64,000 nt of DNA from Candidatus Magasanikiibacteriota bacterium (GTDB lineage: Bacteria > Patescibacteriota > Patescibacteriia > Magasanikbacterales > UBA922): positions 4,388 to 68,387 of the forward strand of contig JABIGQ010000038.1 in assembly GCA_018650085.1 (NCBI GenBank), given 5' to 3'. Made by a program: the position numbers and the translations under genes. This document shows positions 4,303 through 43,567 of the stretch, piece by piece. Under the pieces are notes generated by a model. It was not told where the DNA came from. It worked only from the letters and a program-made list of their open reading frames with translations, and did no database searches. Position 1 is the first letter of the stretch; each line of letters opens with the position of its first letter.

Positions 4303-4462
4303 GATGGACTCCTATGCTTCACATGTTTGTAAAGCTATAGAGGTGGAATGTTCAGTATGCAGAAACAAGAGTTGATATCTGCATTGAACTAAAGTAAGCT
4401 AGCATAAAAAAAGTATTCTGTCAAGTATGGTGTATGGGTTTTTCATGATAGAGAACGTTATA

Positions 4463-21917: not shown

Positions 21918-23141
21918 ATGTCAGATCAACATATCGTATGTCCTAGTTGCAGTGTGAGTATTCCACTTTCAGAAGCACTGAGAAAACAAGTGACAGAACA
22001 ATTAGAAGTGAATTTTAGAAAAAAAGTGGAAAAGCAAATGGAAGAGGTAGCACTTCAGAAAAAAGAATTAGAAAAACAAAAACGAGAAGTAGAAAAATCT
22101 GTAGAAGTAAGATTACAAGCAGAAAAAGAAAAGATGTGGCTTGTAGCGCAAGAAAAAGCAAAGGAGAAAATGAATATTGAACTAAAAGATTTAGAAAAAA
22201 TAAATCAAGAAAAAGAAGTGAAGATACGAGAGATGCAAGAAAAGGAATTGGAATTGCGGAAACAAAAGCGTGAAATAGAAGAAAAAGAAAAAAGTCTTGT
22301 ACTAGAAATGGAAAGAAAGTTAGATGAAGAAAGAGAAAAAGTGTCAAAGCAAGTAAAAGAAGAAGCATTTGTAGAAAGCAGGCTAAAGATAGCAGAAAAA
22401 GACAAGCAAATGGAGCAAATGCGTTCAACGATTGAAGAGTTAAAAAGAAAAAGTGAACAAGGCTCCATGCAAATACAAGGGGATGTGCAAGAAAATGATT
22501 TGAAAGTATTATTACAGCAACATTTCCCAATGGATACTATTGATGATGTTCCTACTGGAATTAGAGGTGCGGATCTCGTACAAACAGTTCATGCACAATT
22601 TGGGAAAAAAACGGGAATTATTCTCTGGGAATCAAAAAACACAAAGGCATGGAGTAGTGACTGGATAAAAAAATTAAAAGATGATCAAGCAGCGGTAAAA
22701 GCAGATGTGTGTATTTTAGTTTCTCAATCTTTGCCAAGTGATATTCAAACGTTTGGATTAAAAAATGGCGTGTGGATTTGTCATTATAAATTTGCATTTG
22801 CGCTGGCATCTACGCTTCGTCTTCATTTAGAAGAATTATCAAAGGCAAAGCAGTCTCTGGTGGGGAAGGATCAGAAGATGGAGTATTTGTATGATTATTT
22901 GTGTGGAAATGAATTTAGAAATAAAATAGAAAATATAGTATCTGCTTTTTCTAGTATGAAGGAAGGATTAGAGACAGAAAAGCGTTCTATGCAGCGTATT
23001 TGGAGTAAAAGGGAAAAAGAAATAGAGCGTGTAATTTTAAACACGTCTGGTATGTATGGGGATCTGCAGGGGATTGTGGGGGCGAGTTTACCTACTGTGG
23101 ATGCATTGGAATTACCTGGTGGAGAAGAGGAAGAAGATTAA
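21918..23141 (+). CDS. DUF2130-like protein: N-terminal CxxC, a long K/E coiled-coil, and a C-terminal PD-(D/E)xK-like (restriction-endonuclease fold) domain.
   Basis: 'CPSCS' at the N-terminus. ~180 aa of heptad-rich E/K repeat. C-terminal 'GADLVQ...GIILWESKNTKAWSSDWIKKL' resembles the D...E-x-K pattern of DUF2130 proteins. Assignment from memory of the family architecture. Confidence 0.5.
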   Translation: MSDQHIVCPSCSVSIPLSEALRKQVTEQLEVNFRKKVEKQMEEVALQKKELEKQKREVEKSVEVRLQAEKEKMWLVAQEKAKEKMNIELKDLEKINQEKEVKIREMQEKELELRKQKREIEEKEKSLVLEMERKLDEEREKVSKQVKEEAFVESRLKIAEKDKQMEQMRSTIEELKRKSEQGSMQIQGDVQENDLKVLLQQHFPMDTIDDVPTGIRGADLVQTVHAQFGKKTGIILWESKNTKAWSSDWIKKLKDDQAAVKADVCILVSQSLPSDIQTFGLKNGVWICHYKFAFALASTLRLHLEELSKAKQSLVGKDQKMEYLYDYLCGNEFRNKIENIVSAFSSMKEGLETEKRSMQRIWSKREKEIERVILNTSGMYGDLQGIVGASLPTVDALELPGGEEEED

Positions 23142-23821
23142 AACACTTCTATATGTATCTGCGTTTTATCAACATTATTTTTTAAAAAAGCATTTCTTAC
23201 ATCTGCAACCATATGTGGGTTTCCGCAGATATAGATTTGTTCATCTGCTGCGATGTTTTCTGGGATGTGTTTTGTGACACGTCCTTTTATTCCACCCCAA
23301 CTATCATGAGCTTGTGATAGTGTTATTGTATATGAAAAGTTTGTGTAATTGTTTGCGAGTTCTTCTAACTTTTCTACCCAAAACAAATCTTTTTCTTCAC
23401 GCACGCCAAATAATAGTCGAATAGGAAGAGGATTGTTTTTTGTTGTGAGTTCATCATAAATAAGACTCATGTTTGGGGCAATACCAACTCCTGTCGCTAT
23501 GCAAGTGATTGGTTTTTTTTCTTTTGAAATATAATGTCCTATAGGTCCTCTTATTTCTAGTTTGTCTCCTATATTCATTTTATGTAGATATGTTGTGGCA
23601 ATACCGTTTGGGATAATTTTTATAGAAAAAATAAGATGAGTATTTGTTGGGTTGGATGCTATAGAATAGGAGCGGGGGACGATTGCTCCTTCATGTGGAA
23701 TCATTGTTTGTATAAATTGTCCTGCTATAAATGTAAATTCTTTTGGTTTAGAAAAATGAAACTCAAATACATCCTCACAAAGGTTTGTTTTTTTTAAAAG
23801 TGTTGTGGTGAAAGTGTTCAT
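23138..23821 (-). CDS. FAD/NAD(P)-binding oxidoreductase of the ferredoxin-NADP reductase superfamily.
   Basis: FAD-binding 'RSYSIAS' (RxYS). NAD-binding 'CIATGVGIAPNMS'. C-terminal 'ICGNPHMV'. Confidence 0.7.
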   Translation of the reverse strand: MNTFTTTLLKKTNLCEDVFEFHFSKPKEFTFIAGQFIQTMIPHEGAIVPRSYSIASNPTNTHLIFSIKIIPNGIATTYLHKMNIGDKLEIRGPIGHYISKEKKPITCIATGVGIAPNMSLIYDELTTKNNPLPIRLLFGVREEKDLFWVEKLEELANNYTNFSYTITLSQAHDSWGGIKGRVTKHIPENIAADEQIYICGNPHMVADVRNAFLKNNVDKTQIHIEVF

Positions 23822-23875: not shown

Positions 23876-23949
23876 CCTCCCCTATCAGGGGAGGCTAGGA
23901 GGGGTCTGTTTTGTAGAAGCCCCCCTCTAACTCCCCCTGGTAGGGGGAG
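23876..23949. repeat. Cluster of GC-rich palindromic hairpins in an AT-rich spacer.
   Basis: CCTCCCC-TATCA-GGGGAGG at 23876-23894 and CTCCCCC-TGGTA-GGGGGAG at 23931-23949, with a G4/C6 stem between. Preceded at 23860-23873 by 'TATATCTATTTTTTT', which is the left-end motif of the 100-bp repeat family. Confidence 0.45.
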
Positions 23950-24046: not shown

Positions 24047-24460
24047 ATGATTTCTTTAAATAAGCAAGTGGATTATGGGGTGCAATTCCTTATAACTCTA
24101 TCACAGCTGGAGGAAAAACAACAAATAAGTTTACGTACATTCACTAATGAGCATAACATGTCATTTCTTTTTTTGCAACGCATTGCGGCATTGTTAAAAG
24201 GGGCTGGATTAATCACTGCAACAAAGGGGGCGCATGGGGGGTATACTTTAGCAAAGAAAGCTGAAGATATTACATTTTTAGATATATATGAGGCTATAGA
24301 AGGGGCATATGGAGCGGCGACCTGTCTGAAAAAAGGGTGTAGTTGTCCCCGCGAGCAGGCGTGTGATTCTCGTATGTTTTTTTCTGTATTACAAAAAGAT
24401 TTGCGTGTATTTATGAAGGGGTATACATTGGCGGATATGGCGGATTTGTCTCGTGCTTAA
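24047..24460 (+). CDS. iscR: Rrf2-family transcriptional regulator (IscR-like).
   Basis: 'KGAGLITATKGAHGGYTLAK' Rrf2 signature. Cys triad 'CLKKGCSCPREQAC'. Directly upstream of the cysteine desulfurase. Confidence 0.75.
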   Translation: MISLNKQVDYGVQFLITLSQLEEKQQISLRTFTNEHNMSFLFLQRIAALLKGAGLITATKGAHGGYTLAKKAEDITFLDIYEAIEGAYGAATCLKKGCSCPREQACDSRMFFSVLQKDLRVFMKGYTLADMADLSRA

Positions 24461-28484: not shown

Positions 28485-29675
28485 ATGACTTTTATGAATT
28501 ATAAAAAAGGACTTGAAAGAAATCTGTGGTTATATGCATTGATACGTATTTTTCGTAAAAGAGCATATATTGCGGTGATTATTATTTATGCTGTTACATA
28601 TGCAAATATAACAGTTGAACAATTTGGAGTCATCGCCGCCATTTCTGCTTTTTTTGTGATGGTTTTAGAAATCCCAAGTGGATATATTTCTGATAAGATT
28701 GGTCATAAAAAGGCTATTACTCTGGGGTCTTTTTTTATGATGATTGCACCACTTGGATTTGTAATTGCACCAAATTTTTATGGAGTGCTATTTGCATCTC
28801 TCGCATATTTCGGTGGTGAAGCATTTCATTCTGGTACGATGCAGGCATTTTTACATGAAACTCTTATTGAGCTTGGGAGAGATGGTGAATTTGGTAAAAT
28901 GACAGCGCGTGCACAGAGGTGGGGAATATTTGGAAATATTTTTCTTGTAGGACTTGTTACGTTAACATATTCCATTGATCCACGACTCCCTTTTCTTATT
29001 GGATTTTTGTTGCAATCCATGATATTGATTATTTCTTTATTGTTTGTAACACCTCGTAAAGAACATCAAAAAATAACTGAAAGAATTCATGATGGTTTTT
29101 TTGCTCTTTTAAAGACTGTGCGGCACAGAAACGAGATTTTTTTATTTTTCTTTTTAGGTTTTATAGCAGCAGTTCACAATAAAATACCAGAGTATAAAGA
29201 ATTATATTTTCAAGATATTGGTGTACCCATGTGGTTTTTTGGGTTAGTGTATTCTCTTATGGGTGTTGTTGGTATTATTTTTACATATCAAATACATAAA
29301 TTTGAAAAATATAAAGCCAAGACATTTTATATGGTTGATTTTTTGATTGCATGTAGTGCGAGTATTATGGTAGGTATAGTATCAAATGTGTTTGTAGGCG
29401 TTGGTATATTTGTATTGTTAGGAGGTTATTATAGAATTCGTAGAATTTTGACTGATGTATATTTACTTAAAACCTGCCCCACTTCGAATTTGAAAGCAAC
29501 ATATTTATCAGTGTATGCATTTTTTGCTTCTTTAAATGCCATATGGGTGCCATTGGTTTTGGGGTATTTCATAGGACGTTTTGGTGTACAACAAGGGTAT
29601 CTGGCATTTGGATTTGGAGCTTTGATTATTTCAATAATCTCATATCTTTTGATTTTTAGAAAAATAAATAAATAA
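28485..29675 (+). CDS. Major facilitator superfamily transporter.
   Basis: 12-TM profile. 'EIPSGYISDKIGHKKAITLG' is an MFS loop 2-3 type motif. Confidence 0.7.
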   Translation: MTFMNYKKGLERNLWLYALIRIFRKRAYIAVIIIYAVTYANITVEQFGVIAAISAFFVMVLEIPSGYISDKIGHKKAITLGSFFMMIAPLGFVIAPNFYGVLFASLAYFGGEAFHSGTMQAFLHETLIELGRDGEFGKMTARAQRWGIFGNIFLVGLVTLTYSIDPRLPFLIGFLLQSMILIISLLFVTPRKEHQKITERIHDGFFALLKTVRHRNEIFLFFFLGFIAAVHNKIPEYKELYFQDIGVPMWFFGLVYSLMGVVGIIFTYQIHKFEKYKAKTFYMVDFLIACSASIMVGIVSNVFVGVGIFVLLGGYYRIRRILTDVYLLKTCPTSNLKATYLSVYAFFASLNAIWVPLVLGYFIGRFGVQQGYLAFGFGALIISIISYLLIFRKINK

Positions 29676-29765: not shown

Positions 29766-29825
29766 TGTTTGGAGTAGGTGGTCTTCCGTAGGGACAGGTC
29801 GCGACCTGTCCCTACATAAATTGTA
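29766..29825 (+). repeat. Direct repeat B, containing a perfect 28-bp palindrome GTAGGGACAGGTCGCGACCTGTCCCTAC at 29788-29815.
   Basis: Shares GGAGTAGGTGGT...TTCCGTAGG...CTGTCCCTACATAAATTG with repeat A. Repeat A carries only half of the palindrome. Confidence 0.5.
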
Positions 29826-29858: not shown

Positions 29859-30212
29859 ATGAGTAAAAATAAAACAATAATTAACGATATTGTTAAAGTG
29901 CAAGAAAAGATAGTTGGCGCCTATATAGAAAATACAGAAGGTACTACTGAAATATTGAAAACAATGTCTGATACTATGGATAAAATAGTTGATAAATTAA
30001 TATTTTTATTTAGGTTATTACAAACTATAGTTTTTATTGTTACTTTAATTGTTTGGAAAGTTTTTTTATCAGAACCGTTTAATGGATTTTTATCTGGATT
30101 TATTGAATGGTGGCCAAGTTTATCAGAAGCGTGGAAAATATTTATTATAAGTATACCCACTTTAATATTAATTCAAATTATAGGAAGTTTAATAGTGAAA
30201 AAAATTAGATAA
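29859..30212 (+). CDS. Small membrane protein, hypothetical.
   Basis: ORF with two hydrophobic helices in the C-terminal half. Confidence 0.4.
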   Translation: MSKNKTIINDIVKVQEKIVGAYIENTEGTTEILKTMSDTMDKIVDKLIFLFRLLQTIVFIVTLIVWKVFLSEPFNGFLSGFIEWWPSLSEAWKIFIISIPTLILIQIIGSLIVKKIR

Positions 30213-34048: not shown

Positions 34049-34417
34049 ATGAAGAAGAAAACACATCAAATTTTACCTAATTGGGAATTTTCAATTGAAA
34101 CTATAGAATCAGTAACTAAAAGGTATAATGGATTTGGGTATAAATTATTTCAAAAATTAAAACAATATCACCCAAATATTTATTCTAAAGTAGTATTTTA
34201 CAGATCTAAAACATATCAATCAGAAGATGTTTATGCAGTATGTGAAGGGATCCCCAATGAATTTATGATACAATTAGATCCAGATTGTGAAGTGATAGTA
34301 TTGAGTAATGGGAAAAATACTGTTGAAATTGGTAGTTGGTCAGATGATGAATATATAGAGGCAATAGAATGTATAATACGGCTCTATAGTTCCTCTATGG
34401 CTGTGAAGCCAGCGTAG
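34049..34417 (+). CDS. Hypothetical protein, 122 aa.
   Basis: ORF only. Confidence 0.35.
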   Translation: MKKKTHQILPNWEFSIETIESVTKRYNGFGYKLFQKLKQYHPNIYSKVVFYRSKTYQSEDVYAVCEGIPNEFMIQLDPDCEVIVLSNGKNTVEIGSWSDDEYIEAIECIIRLYSSSMAVKPA

Positions 34418-34512: not shown

Positions 34513-34553
34513 AATAAAAAAAATGGGCGCTGATTACTTTAGTAATCAGCGCC
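34513..34553 (-). terminator. Rho-independent terminator for clpB on the - strand, ~200 nt after its stop.
   Basis: Perfect hairpin GGCGCTGATTACT-TTAG-AGTAATCAGCGCC followed on the - strand by T8. Confidence 0.5.
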
Positions 34554-34756
34554 TGAGCACCTCCATAAGCGTGAGCCTTTTTTGGGGGGATTCCCCCAAA
34601 GGTGGTTCCCGTTTACATCAAAGGGCGGATGTTTATCTTATATCAAAATATCAAGAGTAATTGTGAGGAAACTGTGCATAAATCATTATTTTAGCTATTC
34701 TAAAATATATATAACAAAAAAAACAAGGGTTTTTATACCTTGTCCTTTTTTATATA

Positions 34757-37402
34757 TTATCGTTTCTTAATCACAATCACATCACCACTAACCACAATCT
34801 TCACAACATCCCCCTCACCAATAGTATTATCAATAATCTGCAAAGCAAGAGGATTTAAAAGTTCAGTCTGAAGGAGCCGTTTTAGTGGACGGGCACCAAA
34901 TAGGGGATCGTAGCCTTTTTTCGCTAACCAATCTTTTGCTTTCATACTTATCTCAAGTGTGATTTTTTGTTCCGCAAGTCGTTTCTCAATATGTACTAAT
35001 TGTAAATCCACAATAGCACGAATCTGCTTTTCCTCCAGAGGATGAAACATGATAATGTCATCTATACGGTTTAAAAATTCTGGCTTGAAGTGTTCTTGGA
35101 GAGTATCCATTACTTTTTTCTTAATCACAGTTTCATTTTCTTTCATTCCTTCTTTTCTCTCTGTACCAAACCCAAATTCACCTTTTTTACTCATATTCAT
35201 AATCATGCTAGAGCCCACATTGCTGGTCATGATGATCACAGTATTTTTAAAGTTTACTTTTCTTCCCTTTGCATCGGTGAGTTGTCCATCGTCTAAAATC
35301 TGTAACATAACATTAAACACATCTGGATGTGCTTTTTCTATTTCATCAAACAATACTACAGAATACGGACGGCGACGGATTTTTTCTGTTAGCTGTCCAC
35401 CTTCTTCATAACCAACGTATCCGGGAGCAGAACCTATCATCTTACTTACGGCGTGCTTTTCCATGTATTCACTCATGTCTACACGCACTATCGCTTCCTC
35501 ATCATTAAATAATATTTCTGCCAAAGCTTTTGCTAATTCTGTTTTCCCAACTCCAGTTGGCCCCATGAAAATAAAAGAACCAATAGGGCGTTTTTCTTCA
35601 GAAATTCCAGCTCGTGATCTTCGGATTGCATGAGAGACAGACTCCACTGCTTCTTCTTGGCCTATGACTCGTTTTCCCAATTCACTTTCCATATTTGCCA
35701 GCTTTTCTGTTTCTGTGCGGAGCATTTTTGACACGGGCACTCCTGTCCAGCGGGCAACTACCCCTGCTATATCTTCATCTGTGACTTCCTCTTTTAGAAT
35801 GCCACGTCCTTTCTGGATGCTCACTAATTTTTTTTCTAATACTCCTATTTCCTCTTCTTTTTTTGGAATTCTATCATAGCGAATTTCTGCTACCTTCTGT
35901 AGATCTCCACGTCTTTCTGTAATATCTGCTTCTTGTTTCAATTCTTCCATTTCTTTTTTTACCCCGCGAATGCTCGTAATAATTTCTTTTTCATTTTTCC
36001 AATGCATTTCTAGTTCATTACTTTCTTCACGGATATTTTCTAATTCTTTTTTAATATTTTTCAATCGTTCTTTCGAATCAGTATCTTTTTCTTTTTTTAA
36101 TGCTTCCACTTCAATCTCATACTTCATCATTTGCCGTTTCATTTTATCTAGCTCATCTGGCATAGAATCTATTTCCATACGAAGTGCAGAAGTAGCTTCA
36201 TCTATTAGGTCTATTGCTTTATCTGGTAAAAAGCGATCAGTAATATAGCGGCTAGAAAGTTCTACCGCTGCTATAATTGCAGGATCAGTAATACGGACTC
36301 CGTGATGCACTTCATATTTTTCTTTTATACCACGAAGAATAGCAATGGCATCATCCTTGTCTGGCTCTAGCACCATGATAGGTTGGAATCGTCGCTCAAA
36401 GGCAGCATCTTTTTCTATATATTTCTGATATTCTTTCAATGTCGTTGCCCCTATAGTGTGAAGTTTTCCACGTGCAAGCGCGGGCTTTAGCATATTACTT
36501 GCGTCTACCGCACCTTCCGTTGCCCCAGCACCCATAATGGTATGAAGCTCATCTATAAATAAAATAATCTTTCCGTCAGATTTTTCCACTTCTTTTATTG
36601 TTGCTTTAAATCTTTCTTCAAATTCTCCACGAAACTTTGTCCCTGCAACTAGTGCTCCTATATCTAGCCCTATGATTTCTTTCCCAACAAGAGATTCTGG
36701 AACATCTCCATTTACTATCCGTTGCGCCAATCCTTCTGCAATAGCAGTTTTCCCAACCCCGGGTTCTCCTATTAATACTGGATTATTTTTTGTCCTTCTG
36801 GTAATTACCTGCATTACACGGCGGATTTCATCGTCTCTTCCTATGACAGGATCTAGTTTTTCTTTGCGAGCAAGTTCTGTAAAATTTAATCCATATTTTT
36901 CTAGTGCCTGGTATGTGCTCTCTGGACTAGGGGAGTCTACCTTTTGGCTTCCACGCACTTCTGCTAATACCTTTAATACAGATTCATGCGTGACTTTTTC
37001 TGTAGCTAATATATCGCTAATTGGGTTTTTGTTTTTTAAATAAGATAACAAGATATGCTCTACACTAATATATTCATCTCCCATTGCCTTTGACTCATCG
37101 TGTGCTTGTTTTAATAAAAACATCATCGCTTGCCCCATCATAATTTGACCCATCCCAGTACTTGGCATATTCCCAAATTGTTTTGGAAGCATCTGGATCA
37201 TTTGCATGATAGTTTGTTTTATCTGGTCAATATTGACATCGAGTTTTTGTAATATAGAAATAACAACCCCATCAGTTTGCTCTAGTAATGATAAGAAAAG
37301 ATGTGGTGGTTCTATCTGAGGCTGCCCATGCTCATTTGCAAGCGCACTTGCTTGCTGGAGGGCTTCTTGTGATTTGTGGGTAAATTGTTGAGGGTTAAAC
37401 AT
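34757..37402 (-). CDS. clpB: ATP-dependent chaperone ClpB (Hsp100 class 1).
   Basis: Two AAA+ modules: '[18 protein letters not shown]...[11 protein letters not shown]' and '[19 protein letters not shown]...[14 protein letters not shown]'. Long coiled-coil M-domain between them. 881 aa. Confidence 0.9.
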
Positions 37403-40132: not shown

Positions 40133-41764
40133 ATGATCAAAACAAGATTTGCACCATCACCAACAGGATTTTTACATGTAGGGAGTTTACGTACAGCACT
40201 TTATGCGTATTTGTATGCAAAAAAACACAATGGAAGCTTTATTTTGCGAGTAGAAGATACAGATAGAGCGAGACTAGTAGAAGGAAGTGTAGAAGCTATG
40301 GTTCGCTCACTTGCTTGGGGTGGAATTGATATTGATGAAGGTGTGAAATTTGATGATGCTGGAGATATTACACAAGTGGGGGAGAATGGGCCATATATTC
40401 AGTCAGAAAGGCTAGATATTTATAAAAAGTACATGGATGAACTCTTGGAAAAAGAACATGCATATCATTGTTTTTGTACAAGAGAGCGATTGGATGATTT
40501 GCGAAAAATGCAAGAGACAAATAAAATGCCTACAGGGTATGATGGACATTGCAGAGAAATGAGCAAAGAAGAAGTTCAAGTAAAGATTGATGCAGGGGAG
40601 AAATATGTTATTCGCCTAAAGATGCCAAAGGAAGGGGTAACGAGTTTTGATGATTTAGTTCGTGGAAAAGTTGAATTTAAAAATGAATTGGTGGATGATC
40701 AAGTACTTATGAAGTCAGATGGTTTCCCTACGTATCATTTTGCAGTAGTGGTGGATGATCACCTTATGGAAATTACGCATGTTATCCGTGGCGAGGAATG
40801 GATTTCTTCTACTCCTAAGCATATTATGCTTTATGAAATGTTTGGTTGGGATAAACCACAATTTGCACATCTTTCTCTTCTCGTAAATGAGAAAAAAGCA
40901 AAATTATCTAAACGTCATGGAGATGTAGCGGTAGAGGATTTCAAAGAAAAAGGATATTTGCCAGAAGCTCTTATAAATTTTATTTCTTTTCTTGGTTGGA
41001 ATCCCGGTGACGAGAGAGAGATATTTAGTTTGAAAGAATTAGAAAAAGAATTTGATTTTGATAAAGTTGCAAAGTCTGCGGCAGTGTTTAATCGTGAGAA
41101 ATTGGCTTGGTATAATAATGAATGGATGAGAAAGTTAGATAAAGATGAGCTTGCAAAAAAATATAGAGATTATCTTGTCAAACCACGAAAAGATATACAT
41201 ATTAATGAATTAACAGATGAAGAGAGTCAAGATCAATATGCTACAGAAGGAAACTCAATATATTATACTTGGTCTGATAAAGAAAATGCTTTACAAGTTA
41301 CTGAAAGTATAGAATCTGAAAATAATAGAAAAATAACAGAAAGTAAATATATAAATTTAGATAAACTTAAAAAGATTTTAGAAATGGGAATGGATAGGGA
41401 TACTTATTTTATGGCTATTGAAATGAATAGTAGATATTTATTTACTACTCAATTAAAATATGAGCCAGAGCTTCTGGTGTGGAAAAAAAGTACTCGGGAA
41501 GGTTCAAAGGAAAAATTAGAATTATTACATGCATTTTTGTCAAATATTTCTGAGGATGATTGGAATGAAAAGTATTTGGAAGAAAATCTCATCGCTTGGA
41601 TAAAGGAAAATGAATATGGTGTGGGAGATGTGCTTTGGCCAATGCGGACTGCTTTGTCTGGACGGAAGAATTCTCCGGGGCCGTTTGAGATTGCGGGGGT
41701 GCTTGGGAAGGGTGTTGTGCTTGAGAGGGTGTTGAGGGGGAGTGATAACATTAAAATAATTTGA
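40133..41764 (+). CDS. gltX: Glutamyl-tRNA synthetase, with an extended C-terminal region.
   Basis: HIGH motif 'PSPTGFLHVGSLRTALYAY', 'RVEDTDRAR', KMSKS motif 'KLSKRHG'. 543 aa. Confidence 0.9.
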   Translation: MIKTRFAPSPTGFLHVGSLRTALYAYLYAKKHNGSFILRVEDTDRARLVEGSVEAMVRSLAWGGIDIDEGVKFDDAGDITQVGENGPYIQSERLDIYKKYMDELLEKEHAYHCFCTRERLDDLRKMQETNKMPTGYDGHCREMSKEEVQVKIDAGEKYVIRLKMPKEGVTSFDDLVRGKVEFKNELVDDQVLMKSDGFPTYHFAVVVDDHLMEITHVIRGEEWISSTPKHIMLYEMFGWDKPQFAHLSLLVNEKKAKLSKRHGDVAVEDFKEKGYLPEALINFISFLGWNPGDEREIFSLKELEKEFDFDKVAKSAAVFNREKLAWYNNEWMRKLDKDELAKKYRDYLVKPRKDIHINELTDEESQDQYATEGNSIYYTWSDKENALQVTESIESENNRKITESKYINLDKLKKILEMGMDRDTYFMAIEMNSRYLFTTQLKYEPELLVWKKSTREGSKEKLELLHAFLSNISEDDWNEKYLEENLIAWIKENEYGVGDVLWPMRTALSGRKNSPGPFEIAGVLGKGVVLERVLRGSDNIKII

Positions 41765-41765
41765 T

Positions 41766-42080
41766 ATGAAATTTATAAAAAGTATTTTAGGATATTTTAT
41801 TGAAATTATACTAGCTATAATAATTTTATATGTCATTAAAGACATTAATTTATTTTTATTATATGCTTTTATCATTTATTTAATTAGTTCAGAAAAAAGA
41901 ATTGATTATATTAGAAAGTTAATTCGTGTATATCAGGTGGGAAATGAAGTAAAATTATTATCTATTATAAAAAAGTTAAAAATAACAGATGAAGAAATAG
42001 AAAATATTTTTGAAAATACTGTAACTGAAGAAGAAAAAAATAATTTAGATAAGGAGTTTAATGATTTGAAAAAGGAATAA
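41766..42080 (+). CDS. Small membrane protein, hypothetical.
   Basis: ORF with an N-terminal TM pair and a charged C-terminus. Confidence 0.35.
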   Translation: MKFIKSILGYFIEIILAIIILYVIKDINLFLLYAFIIYLISSEKRIDYIRKLIRVYQVGNEVKLLSIIKKLKITDEEIENIFENTVTEEEKNNLDKEFNDLKKE

Positions 42081-42096
42081 GATTTTTTTGGTTATT

Positions 42097-42123
42097 GTAG
42101 AGACGCAGCAATGCTGCGTCTAC
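42097..42123. repeat. GC-rich palindromic hairpin GTAGAGACGCAGCA-A-TGCTGCGTCTAC, REP/IS200-end-like.
   Basis: Near-perfect 13-bp stem, 66 bp upstream of the HUH transposase ATG. A second copy lies inside the gene at 42588-42610. Confidence 0.55.
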
Positions 42124-42191
42124 ATCAACAAACAATTCTATGTATAAACAAATAATATCATCTTTATCTAACCCATAAATCACAAAACCCC

Positions 42192-42866
42192 ATGCAACCC
42201 ACCACCCAAAACTTCCTATATAAAAACAAATACAAAACAAACACAATTCGCCTAAAAAATTGGGATTATTCAAAAGACGCATTTTATTTTATAACCATAT
42301 GTACAAAAAATAAACAAAATTTATTTGGAAAAATTGAAAATGATGAAATGGTTTTAAATTCATTTGGGGAAATAATAAAAAAATATTGGTTTGAAATCCC
42401 AAAACATTTTGAAAACGTACGATTGGATGAATTTATTGTCATGCCAAATCATGTACATGGAATTTTGATAATTGATGATGGAAATGGTGGTGGAAATGGT
42501 GGTGGAAATGGTGGTGGAAATGGTGGTGGAAATGGTGGTGGAAATGGTGGTGGAAATGGTGGTGGAACAAAGAACAATGCAAAGATGGAGACGCAGCAGT
42601 GCTGCGTCTCTACAAACAAAATAGACGAAAAGATTCAAAAATCAAATACATTTTATAAATTGAAATCTGGTTCATTACCTGTTATAATTCGTTCATATAA
42701 ATCAATTTGTACAAAAACAATAAATAAATTTCAAGATAATATTCGTTTTGCCTGGCAACCAAGATTTTATGAAAGAATCATTAGAAATCAAAAAGAATTT
42801 TTTAATATAAAATATTATATAATTAATAATCCCGCTAATTGGAGGGATGATAAAAATTTTAAATAA
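42192..42866 (+). CDS. IS200/RAYT-family HUH (Y1) tyrosine transposase, with an in-frame ~60-aa insertion.
   Basis: 'FYFITICTKN', HUH motif 'VMPNHVHGILII', 'SLPVIIRSYKSICTKTINK', catalytic-Tyr region 'FAWQPRFYERIIRNQKEFFNIKYYIINNPANW'. Between the HUH motif and the 'IIRSYKS' helix lie (GNGG)x7 and a hairpin-encoded segment. Confidence 0.6.
   Translation: MQPTTQNFLYKNKYKTNTIRLKNWDYSKDAFYFITICTKNKQNLFGKIENDEMVLNSFGEIIKKYWFEIPKHFENVRLDEFIVMPNHVHGILIIDDGNGGGNGGGNGGGNGGGNGGGNGGGNGGGTKNNAKMETQQCCVSTNKIDEKIQKSNTFYKLKSGSLPVIIRSYKSICTKTINKFQDNIRFAWQPRFYERIIRNQKEFFNIKYYIINNPANWRDDKNFK
42481..42564 (+). repeat. Perfect tandem repeat (GAAATGGTGGTG)x7 inside the transposase ORF.
   Basis: Seven identical 12-bp units encoding GNGG repeats. 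In-frame. Confidence 0.9.
42588..42610. repeat. Second copy of the palindromic hairpin GAGACGCAGCA-G-TGCTGCGTCTC, inside the transposase ORF.
   Basis: Perfect 11-bp stem immediately after the tandem repeat. Confidence 0.55.
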
Positions 42867-42874
42867 AAAACAAT

Positions 42875-43567
42875 ATGAAACTCAAACAAATAAAATCGAC
42901 ATACTTCAAAGAAAACCAAAAGTATGATTTTCTTTTTCCTATTGGTTCTACTGAACAACATGGAGCATTTATTCCATTTGGGACAGATACATATATTACA
43001 GATTATTTAGTTGATAAAATTTCTAAAGAATTTCCAGAATTAATTGTTTTACCAACTTTAGAAGTTTCAAGATCAGAAGAACATAGAGGTTTTTATGGTA
43101 GTCTTTGGATAACAGAAGAAACATTAAAAGCTGTAATGTTTGATATTTGTAATTCACTTAAAGATAGGGCAAGAAATATCTTTATTACATCTTTTCATGC
43201 CAATGGTTCATATATTGAAAGTTTTATTAAAGAAAATAATTTTGATGGTGTAAATATTGTTCATCTTGAAATAGAACATGAAGAAGATGATAAGGTAATA
43301 GAGCAAATTCTTGGAGGAGAAATGGATAATCATGCTGGAAATTCAGAAATATCAAATATGCTCGTAATTGATGAAAAATTAGTAAAAGTTCCTTCCGAGA
43401 ACGAGCCTAAAACACAAGTAGACAATCCTTTTGAAACAGATAAATTGATAGAGAAGTGTCCAAACGGAATAGCAGATAATCATCCAAAATGGATAGTAGA
43501 TAAAGAAATTGGGAAGAAAATTCTTGATATTTATGTTGCTAGGATGATTGAGAATTTGAATATATGA
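42875..43567 (+). CDS. Creatininase-family amidohydrolase.
   Basis: 'FLFPIGSTEQHGAFIPFGTDTYI' matches the creatininase-fold metal-binding signature (GSxEQHG...D). Confidence 0.65.
   Translation: MKLKQIKSTYFKENQKYDFLFPIGSTEQHGAFIPFGTDTYITDYLVDKISKEFPELIVLPTLEVSRSEEHRGFYGSLWITEETLKAVMFDICNSLKDRARNIFITSFHANGSYIESFIKENNFDGVNIVHLEIEHEEDDKVIEQILGGEMDNHAGNSEISNMLVIDEKLVKVPSENEPKTQVDNPFETDKLIEKCPNGIADNHPKWIVDKEIGKKILDIYVARMIENLNI

Follow-up and report, generated by a model that had tools for sequence, protein, structure and literature searches.

A probable REPtron in Candidatus Magasanikbacteria with a REP hairpin and a variable tandem repeat in frame within its transposase gene

The locus described in this report lies in a 64,000-nucleotide stretch of DNA (the window; G+C content, 34.6%) from a metagenome-assembled genome (MAG) of Candidatus Magasanikbacteria, corresponding to positions 4,388 to 68,387 of contig JABIGQ010000038.1. 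It comprises a gene for a REP-associated tyrosine transposase (RAYT) and two copies of a repetitive extragenic palindromic (REP) hairpin, one ahead of the gene and the other in frame within it. We think it probable that together they form a REPtron, made up of a RAYT gene of TnpAY1 subclass 2.4 and two cognate double-foot REP hairpins, of which the internal copy is tolerated in a loop of the protein. The phenomenon is already published as a hallmark of TnpAY1 subclass 2.4, and the window holds a further example of it from the Candidate Phyla Radiation (CPR). The features of the locus are as follows.

42097..42123, + strand: upstream REP copy, GTAGAGACGCAGCA-A-TGCTGCGTCTAC (from hairpin and foot comparison and the single-stranded DNA [ssDNA] fold)
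42192..42866, + strand: tnpA-REP/RAYT gene, 224 amino acids (aa), ATG start; TnpAY1 subclass 2.4 (Bertels Group 4)
42450..42458, + strand: HUH codons H87-V88-H89 within MPNHVHGI (from the sequence and the invariance of H87/H89 in alignment A1)
42479..42567, + strand: perfect 12-bp tandem repeat, TGGAAATGGTGG x7.4, encoding (GNGG)n (from Tandem Repeats Finder [TRF])
42585..42613, + strand: internal REP copy, ATGGAGACGCAGCA-G-TGCTGCGTCTCTAC, in-frame peptide METQQCCVST
42753..42785, + strand: W-Q motif WQPRFYERIIR (W188-R198) (from the hidden Markov model alignment to 4er8_A)
42816..42833, + strand: catalytic Tyr motif YIINNP (Y209, N213) (from alignment A1 and the counterparts in 4ER8)

RESULTS

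The two hairpins of the locus

The 19-nt core of the hairpin, GACGCAGCA-N-TGCTGCGTC, is found at exactly two places in the window, 42102-42120 and 42590-42608, and 100 shuffles yielded none. The internal palindrome, which a preliminary description of this DNA had placed at 42588-42610, is confirmed as perfect, with 11-nt arms (42588-42598 and 42600-42610) that are 100% complementary. The near-identical palindrome reported upstream at 42097-42123 is also present, 17 nt past the stop codon of a same-strand open reading frame (ORF) at 41766-42080 and 68 nt, rather than the 66 nt first given, ahead of the RAYT ATG. Folded as ssDNA, the upstream hairpin reaches -11.9 kcal/mol (z = -5.3) and the internal hairpin -12.2 kcal/mol (z = -6.1).

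The feet of the two copies are asymmetric. In the upstream copy the 5' GTAG on the top strand is intact and the 3' foot is 2 nt short; in the internal copy the 5' foot is degenerate (ATGG) and the 3' CTAC is intact, which leaves GTAG on the bottom strand only. The best match between the two copies is as an inverted pair, 94% over 32 nt. The gene had been described as both flanked and invaded by its own REP-like hairpin, and of this the in-frame internal copy and the upstream copy hold, but a downstream copy is missing.

Fold and motifs of the predicted protein

To judge by its sequence, ORF 42192-42866 encodes a Y1/HUH enzyme. The preliminary description had recognized the HUH motif, which is present as N86-H87-V88-H89, and had placed the gene among the RAYTs and related Y1 transposases, a placement that both profile and structure comparisons bear out. 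A profile of 36 family members matches one PDB sequence, that of Escherichia coli TnpAREP (4ER8; E = 6.7e-7), and a Foldseek search against the PDB returns 4ER8 first, followed by the IS608, ISDra2, and IS200 transposases, with a probability of 1.00 and an E value of about 2e-5 for the matches 4ER8, 2A6M, 2VJU, and 2XMA. The NCBIfam model REP_Tyr_transpos (NF047646) scores the native protein at 59.2 bits (E = 3.9e-16), compared to a curated equivalog cutoff of 80; the protein is a relative of the E. coli-type family behind this model but not an equivalog of it. Alignment to Pfam Y1_Tnp (PF01797), which had been proposed as a check on the assignment, covers only the N-terminal half of the native protein and gives 17 bits against a gathering score of 23. 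When residues 98-155 are deleted in silico, the score rises above that threshold, to 28.7 bits, in one continuous stretch over positions 7-120 of 121.

In the profile alignment to 4ER8, the E. coli residues W94, Q95, E100, H101, R104, Y115, and N119 correspond to W188, Q189, E194, R195, R198, Y209, and N213 of the window protein. The HUH residues H87-V88-H89 align to H59-M60-H61 of 4ER8, and Y209...N213-P214 to Y115...N119-P120. In E. coli TnpAREP, Y115 is the catalytic tyrosine and H59, H61, and N119 are metal ligands (PMC3479197), while W94, Q95, E100, H101, and R104 make up the GTAG-contacting region (PMC6006769). Because this alignment maps W94/Q95 to the segment 'FAWQPRFYERIIRNQ', that segment is the conserved W-Q motif and not, as first proposed, the tyrosine region; the catalytic tyrosine is instead assigned to Y209, in KYYIINNP. 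H87, H89, Y209, I210, and N213 are invariant in alignment A1, where an N-terminal segment NKYR..S.RL.NWDY is also conserved.

The extra residues noticed after the HUH motif, estimated at about 60, are residues 99-155, and they are modelled as disordered. In an AlphaFold2 model built from the family alignment, the core has a predicted local distance difference test (pLDDT) score of >90, and residues 1-18 and 99-155 fall below 50. As modelled, the insertion is a disordered loop between the strand at 87-94, which carries the HUH motif, and the helix at 162-179.

All of the catalytic and GTAG-recognition residues are present (H87, H89, W188, Q189, E194, R198, Y209, and N213), and the core dN/dS is 0.20 (dN 0.16, dS 0.80; Nei-Gojobori) in comparison with P0002/L199, a 63% identical protein. 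Together with the open frame of every allele seen, described below, these observations argue against a relic, and at the sequence level they argue for a functional gene under purifying selection.

A recurrent hairpin between HUH and Y in homologous genes

Ninety-two homologues were found, 80 metagenomic loci were fetched, and 72 genes with recognizable HUH and Y motifs were scanned. At least one GC-rich hairpin is present between HUH and Y in 55 of these 72 genes. The feature is no one-off invasion but the hallmark published for subclass 2.4 (PMC6006769). Hairpins are densest between HUH and Y, at 3.27 per kb; the density is 1.51 per kb in flanks of up to 300 bp, 0.94 elsewhere inside the gene, and 0.44 farther away. 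We used this enrichment over other regions and set aside a covariation test on the internal hairpins, because the hairpin set was preselected as palindromic. A GTAG or CTAC foot is found on 64 of 72 HUH-to-Y hairpins, and the sequence of the internal hairpin is that of the flanking hairpins of its own locus (for example, at L172, L146, L143, L138, and L197).

The family alignment has the same loop in almost every member, namely, a variable G/N/D-rich stretch followed by a REP-type peptide such as VETQQCCVST, VETLHCNVST, VETRHALSL, GRDKALPCLY, or CRDVACNVST, all of which back-translate to GTAG...CTAC palindromes. The GTAG foot falls 40 times in the frame GTA-GAG and 8 times in the frame xGT-AGA; the frame that would yield a TAG stop does not occur, as is expected for intact genes. 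Since only stop-free frames are seen, the peptides are only of the VET/VGA and xRD/xRG types. Tandem arrays of half- or whole-REP units, such as (VETQNI)x5 and (HGRAPL)x5, are observed in the loops of L163, L190, L194, L151, and L185, where REP arms have therefore been amplified in frame inside the transposase gene.

A further comparison is with P0002/L199, in which the same upstream-plus-internal REP arrangement is found with the same feet intact. This locus is without the GNGG repeat, and its neighbors are unrelated to those in the window except for a weak MazG-like neighbor in common.

The 12-bp tandem repeat as an in-frame length polymorphism

The perfect sevenfold 12-bp repeat of the preliminary description is recovered by TRF at 42479-42567 with a period of 12, 7.4 copies, 100% matches, and a score of 178, and it encodes (GNGG)7; no other tandem repeat in the 64 kb scores above 61. 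Assemblies from the same Candidatus Magasanikbacteria population are about 99.9% identical to the window over 13 kb, and the suspected variation in repeat number is found among them: 7 units in the window, 5 in L200, 2 in both L001 and L201, and at least 4 in L202, a contig that begins within the tract. Both hairpins are invariant across L001, L200, and L201. The allele differences are all multiples of 12 bp, and the reading frame is kept in every allele. The tract is an in-frame variable-number tandem repeat (VNTR), that is, a true length polymorphism, in the predicted disordered loop. Among the homologues, loop tandem repeats are present in 29 of 74, and nearly every period is divisible by 3.

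The tract had also been put forward as a contingency locus that toggles the reading frame. A 12-bp unit is equal to 4 codons and so cannot do this; the candidate was rejected on the unit length and on the in-frame alleles of 2, 5, and 7 units.

Two contigs of the same population end within these elements. The first bases of L204 lie in the loop of the internal REP hairpin (L204:1-12 matching the window near 42603), and positions 1-60 of L202 match window positions from about 42515 to 42567. Such contig ends fit assembly-graph breaks arising from repeat-length heterogeneity.

The REP family in other genomes

The exact 19-nt core was scanned in GTDB with one genome per species, and the counts are lower bounds. 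The core is present in at least 117 loci, and at least 22 genomes have 2 to 6 exact copies each on different contigs. The hairpin belongs to a real, mobile, dispersed multicopy REP family in other genomes, as its description as a REP had foreseen. The phyla among the matches listed include Moranbacteria, Paceibacterota, Gracilibacteria, Omnitrophota, Terriglobia, Chloroflexota, Cyanobacteria, and Neomarinimicrobiota. Among the 121 copies listed, 60 have a 5' GT[AG]G foot, 62 have a 3' C[TC]AC foot, and 40 have both. A RAYT is encoded nearby in 8 of the at least 117 loci listed, and in L032, a Moraniibacteriota MAG, REPs are located upstream of, inside, and downstream of its RAYT.

Of the 45 REP copies listed from low-GC genomes, about 20 are within frames that run for 150 codons or more without a stop. 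Six checked genes have VETQ[QH]CCVST in frame; they encode RsmA/KsgA, a class I aminoacyl-tRNA synthetase, UvrB, RecG, a GT1 glycosyltransferase, and ComEC. The host genomes are Moranbacteria and Parcubacteria MAGs, with the RsmA/KsgA insertion in three genomes at the same site and the glycosyltransferase insertion in two. Intragenic REPs, notably in repair genes, were reported earlier by Di Nocera et al. 2013 (PMC3733652). The loci with in-frame REPs are as follows.

L025:3656
L045:4566
L112:1263
L080:1662
L082:454
L094:6407
L068:4783
L110:4871
L034:5116

We also observed that the 19-nt core is identical, and the GTAGA/TCTAC feet often identical, across very distant phyla (loci L002-L118). 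A core shared over such distances points to horizontal spread of the REPtron or, alternatively, to a recognized sequence that is strongly constrained.

Comparison with known systems

The window gene most resembles the Group 4 RAYTs, reportedly described by Bertels, Gallie, and Rainey in 2017 (GBE 9:2110). Bertels' Group 4 is the same as TnpAY1 subclass 2.4, defined by Quentin, Siguier, Chandler, and Fichant (2018, BMC Genomics 19:475; PMC6006769). According to that paper, subclass 2.4 proteins have the motifs NH[IFV]H, WQ, and YIxNNP, the last within the class 2 signature Y---NP (Table 1 of PMC6006769), a median length of 194 aa, and a median HuH-to-Y distance of 88 aa. Their alphaB ends in an 8-aa insertion, and a short N-terminal motif is conserved. 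Between beta3 and alphaC they carry an insertion of varying length and sequence, which is modelled as peripheral, and DNA "short repeats" account for the heterogeneity of this variable region (PMC6006769). "Double-foot" REPs (GT[AG]G...C[TC]AC) both flank the gene and sit in frame within it, and the hosts are given as Cyanobacteria, Bacteroidetes, and "various phyla" (PMC6006769).

The window gene agrees with this description in its motifs (N86-H87-V88-H89, W188-Q189, and Y209-I-I-N-N-P214), in having a variable beta3-alphaC insertion (residues 99-155, where alignment A1 is highly gapped), and in its size class, without a C-terminal extra domain. It likewise has short DNA repeats in the variable region and a cognate long double-foot REP adjoining it, the upstream copy, with another in frame inside. 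Subclass 2.4 genes are of low copy number and not IS-like; the window has one copy. It differs in its host, which is a Patescibacteria (Magasanikbacteria) MAG, in lacking a downstream REP, and in having an internal REP without an intact 5' foot. Its HuH-to-Y distance is unusually long, at 118 aa compared to a median of 89 aa in 74 homologues, because of the perfect sevenfold 12-bp VNTR.

E. coli TnpAREP, also called YafM, belongs with its REPtron to subclass 2.2/Group 2 (4ER8; Messing et al. 2012; Ton-Hoang et al. 2012). They share with the window locus the Y1 HUH fold, as the top structural match, and a cognate hairpin with a 5' GTAG; the gene is of domesticated type and single copy (for the RAYT gene, within the window), and the counterparts of W94, Q95, E100, R104, Y115, and N119 are kept in the window protein. 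The two proteins are only about 14% identical in sequence, however; the motifs of the E. coli enzyme are of the DHLH/YIHYNP type, and its active site is closed over by a C-terminal extension. The E. coli REPs also differ in being imperfect, bulged, and single footed, and they lie on both flanks of the gene as bacterial interspersed mosaic elements, never inside it, with hundreds of REPs per genome.

The IS200/IS605 transposases (IS608 and ISDra2; subclass 1.1) have the same HUH/Y1 fold and also recognize ssDNA hairpins, but they have a Y---Q motif in place of the Y---NP of the window protein. Their subterminal left- and right-end hairpins, many identical copies, and frequent tnpB have no counterpart at the window locus. 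An IS200/IS605 insertion sequence was accordingly ruled out, by the Y---NP motif, the single gene copy in the window, and the lack of tnpB nearby. Intragenic REP insertions (Di Nocera et al. 2013, BMC Genomics 14:522) and the rickettsial palindromic elements are similar in being short in-frame palindromes (GTAG-tagged) tolerated in loops; they differ in that the host gene at the window locus is the putative transposase of the REP itself.

Surroundings of the locus and other palindromes

The RAYT gene is present in one copy in the 64-kb window (tblastn) and occupies the identical site in all assemblies of the population. Its neighbors are housekeeping genes without tnpB; among their proteins are GltX and a creatininase, whose exact sequence matches identify the organism as a Candidatus Magasanikbacteria MAG. 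A search of the window against Rfam returned two tRNAs only, with no entry at the hairpins. When 41700-43000 was scanned for promoters and terminators, promoter-like sites were about as frequent as chance predicts and terminator-like sites were absent. The exact 224-aa protein has no entry in a collection of 15 billion proteins in which both flanking proteins are found (MBT4071742 and MBT4071745; NCBI MAG records); the deposited record may hold another repeat allele or start, or may leave the RAYT gene uncalled.

Several other palindromes are found in the window. A perfect 28-nt double-foot palindrome, GTAGGGACAGGTCGCGACCTGTCCCTAC, occupies 29788-29815 between ORFs 28485-29675 and 29859-30212, and folds as ssDNA at -13.4 kcal/mol (z = -6.5). 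It resembles a REP, though of a different family; no second RAYT for it was found in the window, and GTAGGGACAGGTCGCGACCTGTCCCTAC has no match in any fetched locus. Two GC-rich perfect palindromes, GGCGCTGATTACTTTAGTAATCAGCGCC (34526-34553) and TTTGGGGGGATTCCCCCAAA (34581-34600), lie between the convergent ORFs 34049-34417 (+) and 34757-37402 (-), the latter being a ClpB homologue by comparison with L001, and may be bidirectional terminators. Two related short hairpins, CCTCCCCTATCAGGGGAGG (23876-23894) and CTCCCCCTGGTAGGGGGAG (23931-23949), are situated 55 nt apart from start to start in the gap between the divergent ORFs 23138-23821 (-) and 24047-24460 (+).

DISCUSSION

By homology to E. coli TnpAREP, the enzyme encoded at this locus would bind single-stranded REP hairpins, reading the GTAG foot through its W-Q motif, and would cleave and rejoin ssDNA with Y209 and a metal bound by the HUH motif. 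REPs would be deposited preferentially near the gene, accumulating there because the enzyme acts locally, and selection would purge intragenic copies other than those in a permissive loop and a stop-free frame. In the RAYT loop, a REP can be tolerated in two frames only, giving VET... or xRD..., because these avoid the TAG of GTAG. The VNTR would arise by slipped-strand slippage and may be nearly neutral, shifting the loop length in steps of four residues. Between the alternatives raised in the preliminary description, a domesticated RAYT with a tolerated insertion is favored over an inactivated gene by the predicted disorder of the loop, the core dN/dS, and the same architecture in most homologues.

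Some observations weigh against a REPtron with a tolerated internal copy. No REP copy was found 3' of the RAYT gene, and this one-sided flanking departs from the canonical REPtron; within the 64-kb window the REP core is confined to the two copies at the gene, and the host genome of the window is not among the matches listed for the core. The NF047646 score remains below the cutoff of 80 for the loop-deleted protein as well, at 70.3 bits. An old insertion that was inherited, or selected for, could account for the frame bias of 40 to 8 and for the nearly constant place of the internal REP, in lieu of repeated local insertion. The allele sizes of the VNTR were read from assemblies of short reads, in which tandem repeats can be collapsed. 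In the literature after 2018, the experimental work found on TnpAREP, including a biochemical study of 2021, concerns groups 2 and 3 only, with none on subclass 2.4.

Some of the same observations could be read to mean that the internal REP is functional, either as a cis-acting site of autoregulation (through the enzyme, the mRNA, or an ssDNA hairpin) or as the effective right end of the REPtron. In the right-end version, the inverted pair 42097-42123/42585-42613 would be a REPIN-like unit (REPIN, REP doublet forming hairpins) enclosing the 5' half of the gene, which would agree with the best match of the two copies being an inverted one and with the lack of a REP downstream. A function is also suggested by the HUH-to-Y hairpins in 55 of 72 homologues, which always belong to the REP family of their own locus, by the strong frame bias, and by the retention of the upstream-plus-internal arrangement with the same asymmetric feet at 63% protein identity, despite different neighbors. 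Against it, the hairpin is lacking in 17 of the 72 homologues and present two or three times in others, the spacing to the conserved flanking segments varies, and unrelated housekeeping genes contain the same REP in frame, where it could hardly serve to regulate a RAYT. On balance we regard a functional internal REP as unlikely. We take an equally reserved view of the fuller proposal, which is that the internal REP is selected as a self-recognition site by which the enzyme would sense or nick its own gene, or regulate it (in the mRNA or on the template of the lagging strand), or as the right-hand partner of the pair, with the VNTR tuning the linker length. The upstream hairpin, for its part, might be mainly a 3'-end element of the gene at 41766-42080, stabilizing or terminating its mRNA as E. 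coli REPs do, with only a secondary link to the RAYT. Its place 17 nt past the stop codon of that same-strand ORF and its stable stem-loop would suit this role, and REPs are located mostly downstream of coding regions (PMC3733652). There is no T-run or called terminator-like site, however, the same hairpin precedes the RAYT in L199, where an unrelated gene lies ahead of it, and the internal copy is left unaccounted for; such a role, itself improbable as the main one, would in any case be compatible with the REPtron that we prefer.

A further possibility is that the gene is an inactivated relic, in which the REP insertion and the repeat expansion destroyed the enzyme and the frame has stayed open by chance. 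This would explain why the native protein falls short of the Pfam Y1_Tnp gathering score, with 57 residues interrupting the catalytic domain, and why the 64 kb hold no further REP copies and no sign of ongoing activity. Opposed to it are the intact catalytic and GTAG-recognition residues, the core dN/dS of 0.20, the frame open in every allele seen, and a model in which the core pLDDT is >90 and the insert is an external loop. The same insertion architecture is moreover the norm of the family, both in our 55 of 72 homologues and in the published survey (PMC6006769), and we consider a relic slightly less likely again than the roles just discussed. The (GNGG)n tract could, finally, be imagined as a phase-variation switch that toggles the transposase by slipped-strand mispairing, and a perfect tract with copy numbers of 2, 5, and 7 across near-identical genomes is what would bring such a switch to mind. 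With a 4-codon unit, all observed alleles in frame, a tract that encodes a predicted disordered loop away from the active site, and repeat periods in homologues that are almost all multiples of 3, a switch of this kind is very improbable.

A REPtron with an internal REP tolerated in a loop is thus an instance of a published but little-known curiosity, a family of domesticated ssDNA transposases that habitually carry their own target hairpin in frame. To this the present case adds a clear example in a CPR/Patescibacteria genome and population evidence of an in-frame VNTR, with 2, 5, and 7 units, in a permissive loop. It also adds the occurrence of the same REP (VETQ[QH]CCVST) across several phyla, and in frame in essential genes of related CPR bacteria (RsmA, a class I aminoacyl-tRNA synthetase, UvrB, and RecG). 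The combination of a small protein and a defined 29-nt substrate would make this a convenient model in which to ask whether the internal REP is neutral or regulatory.

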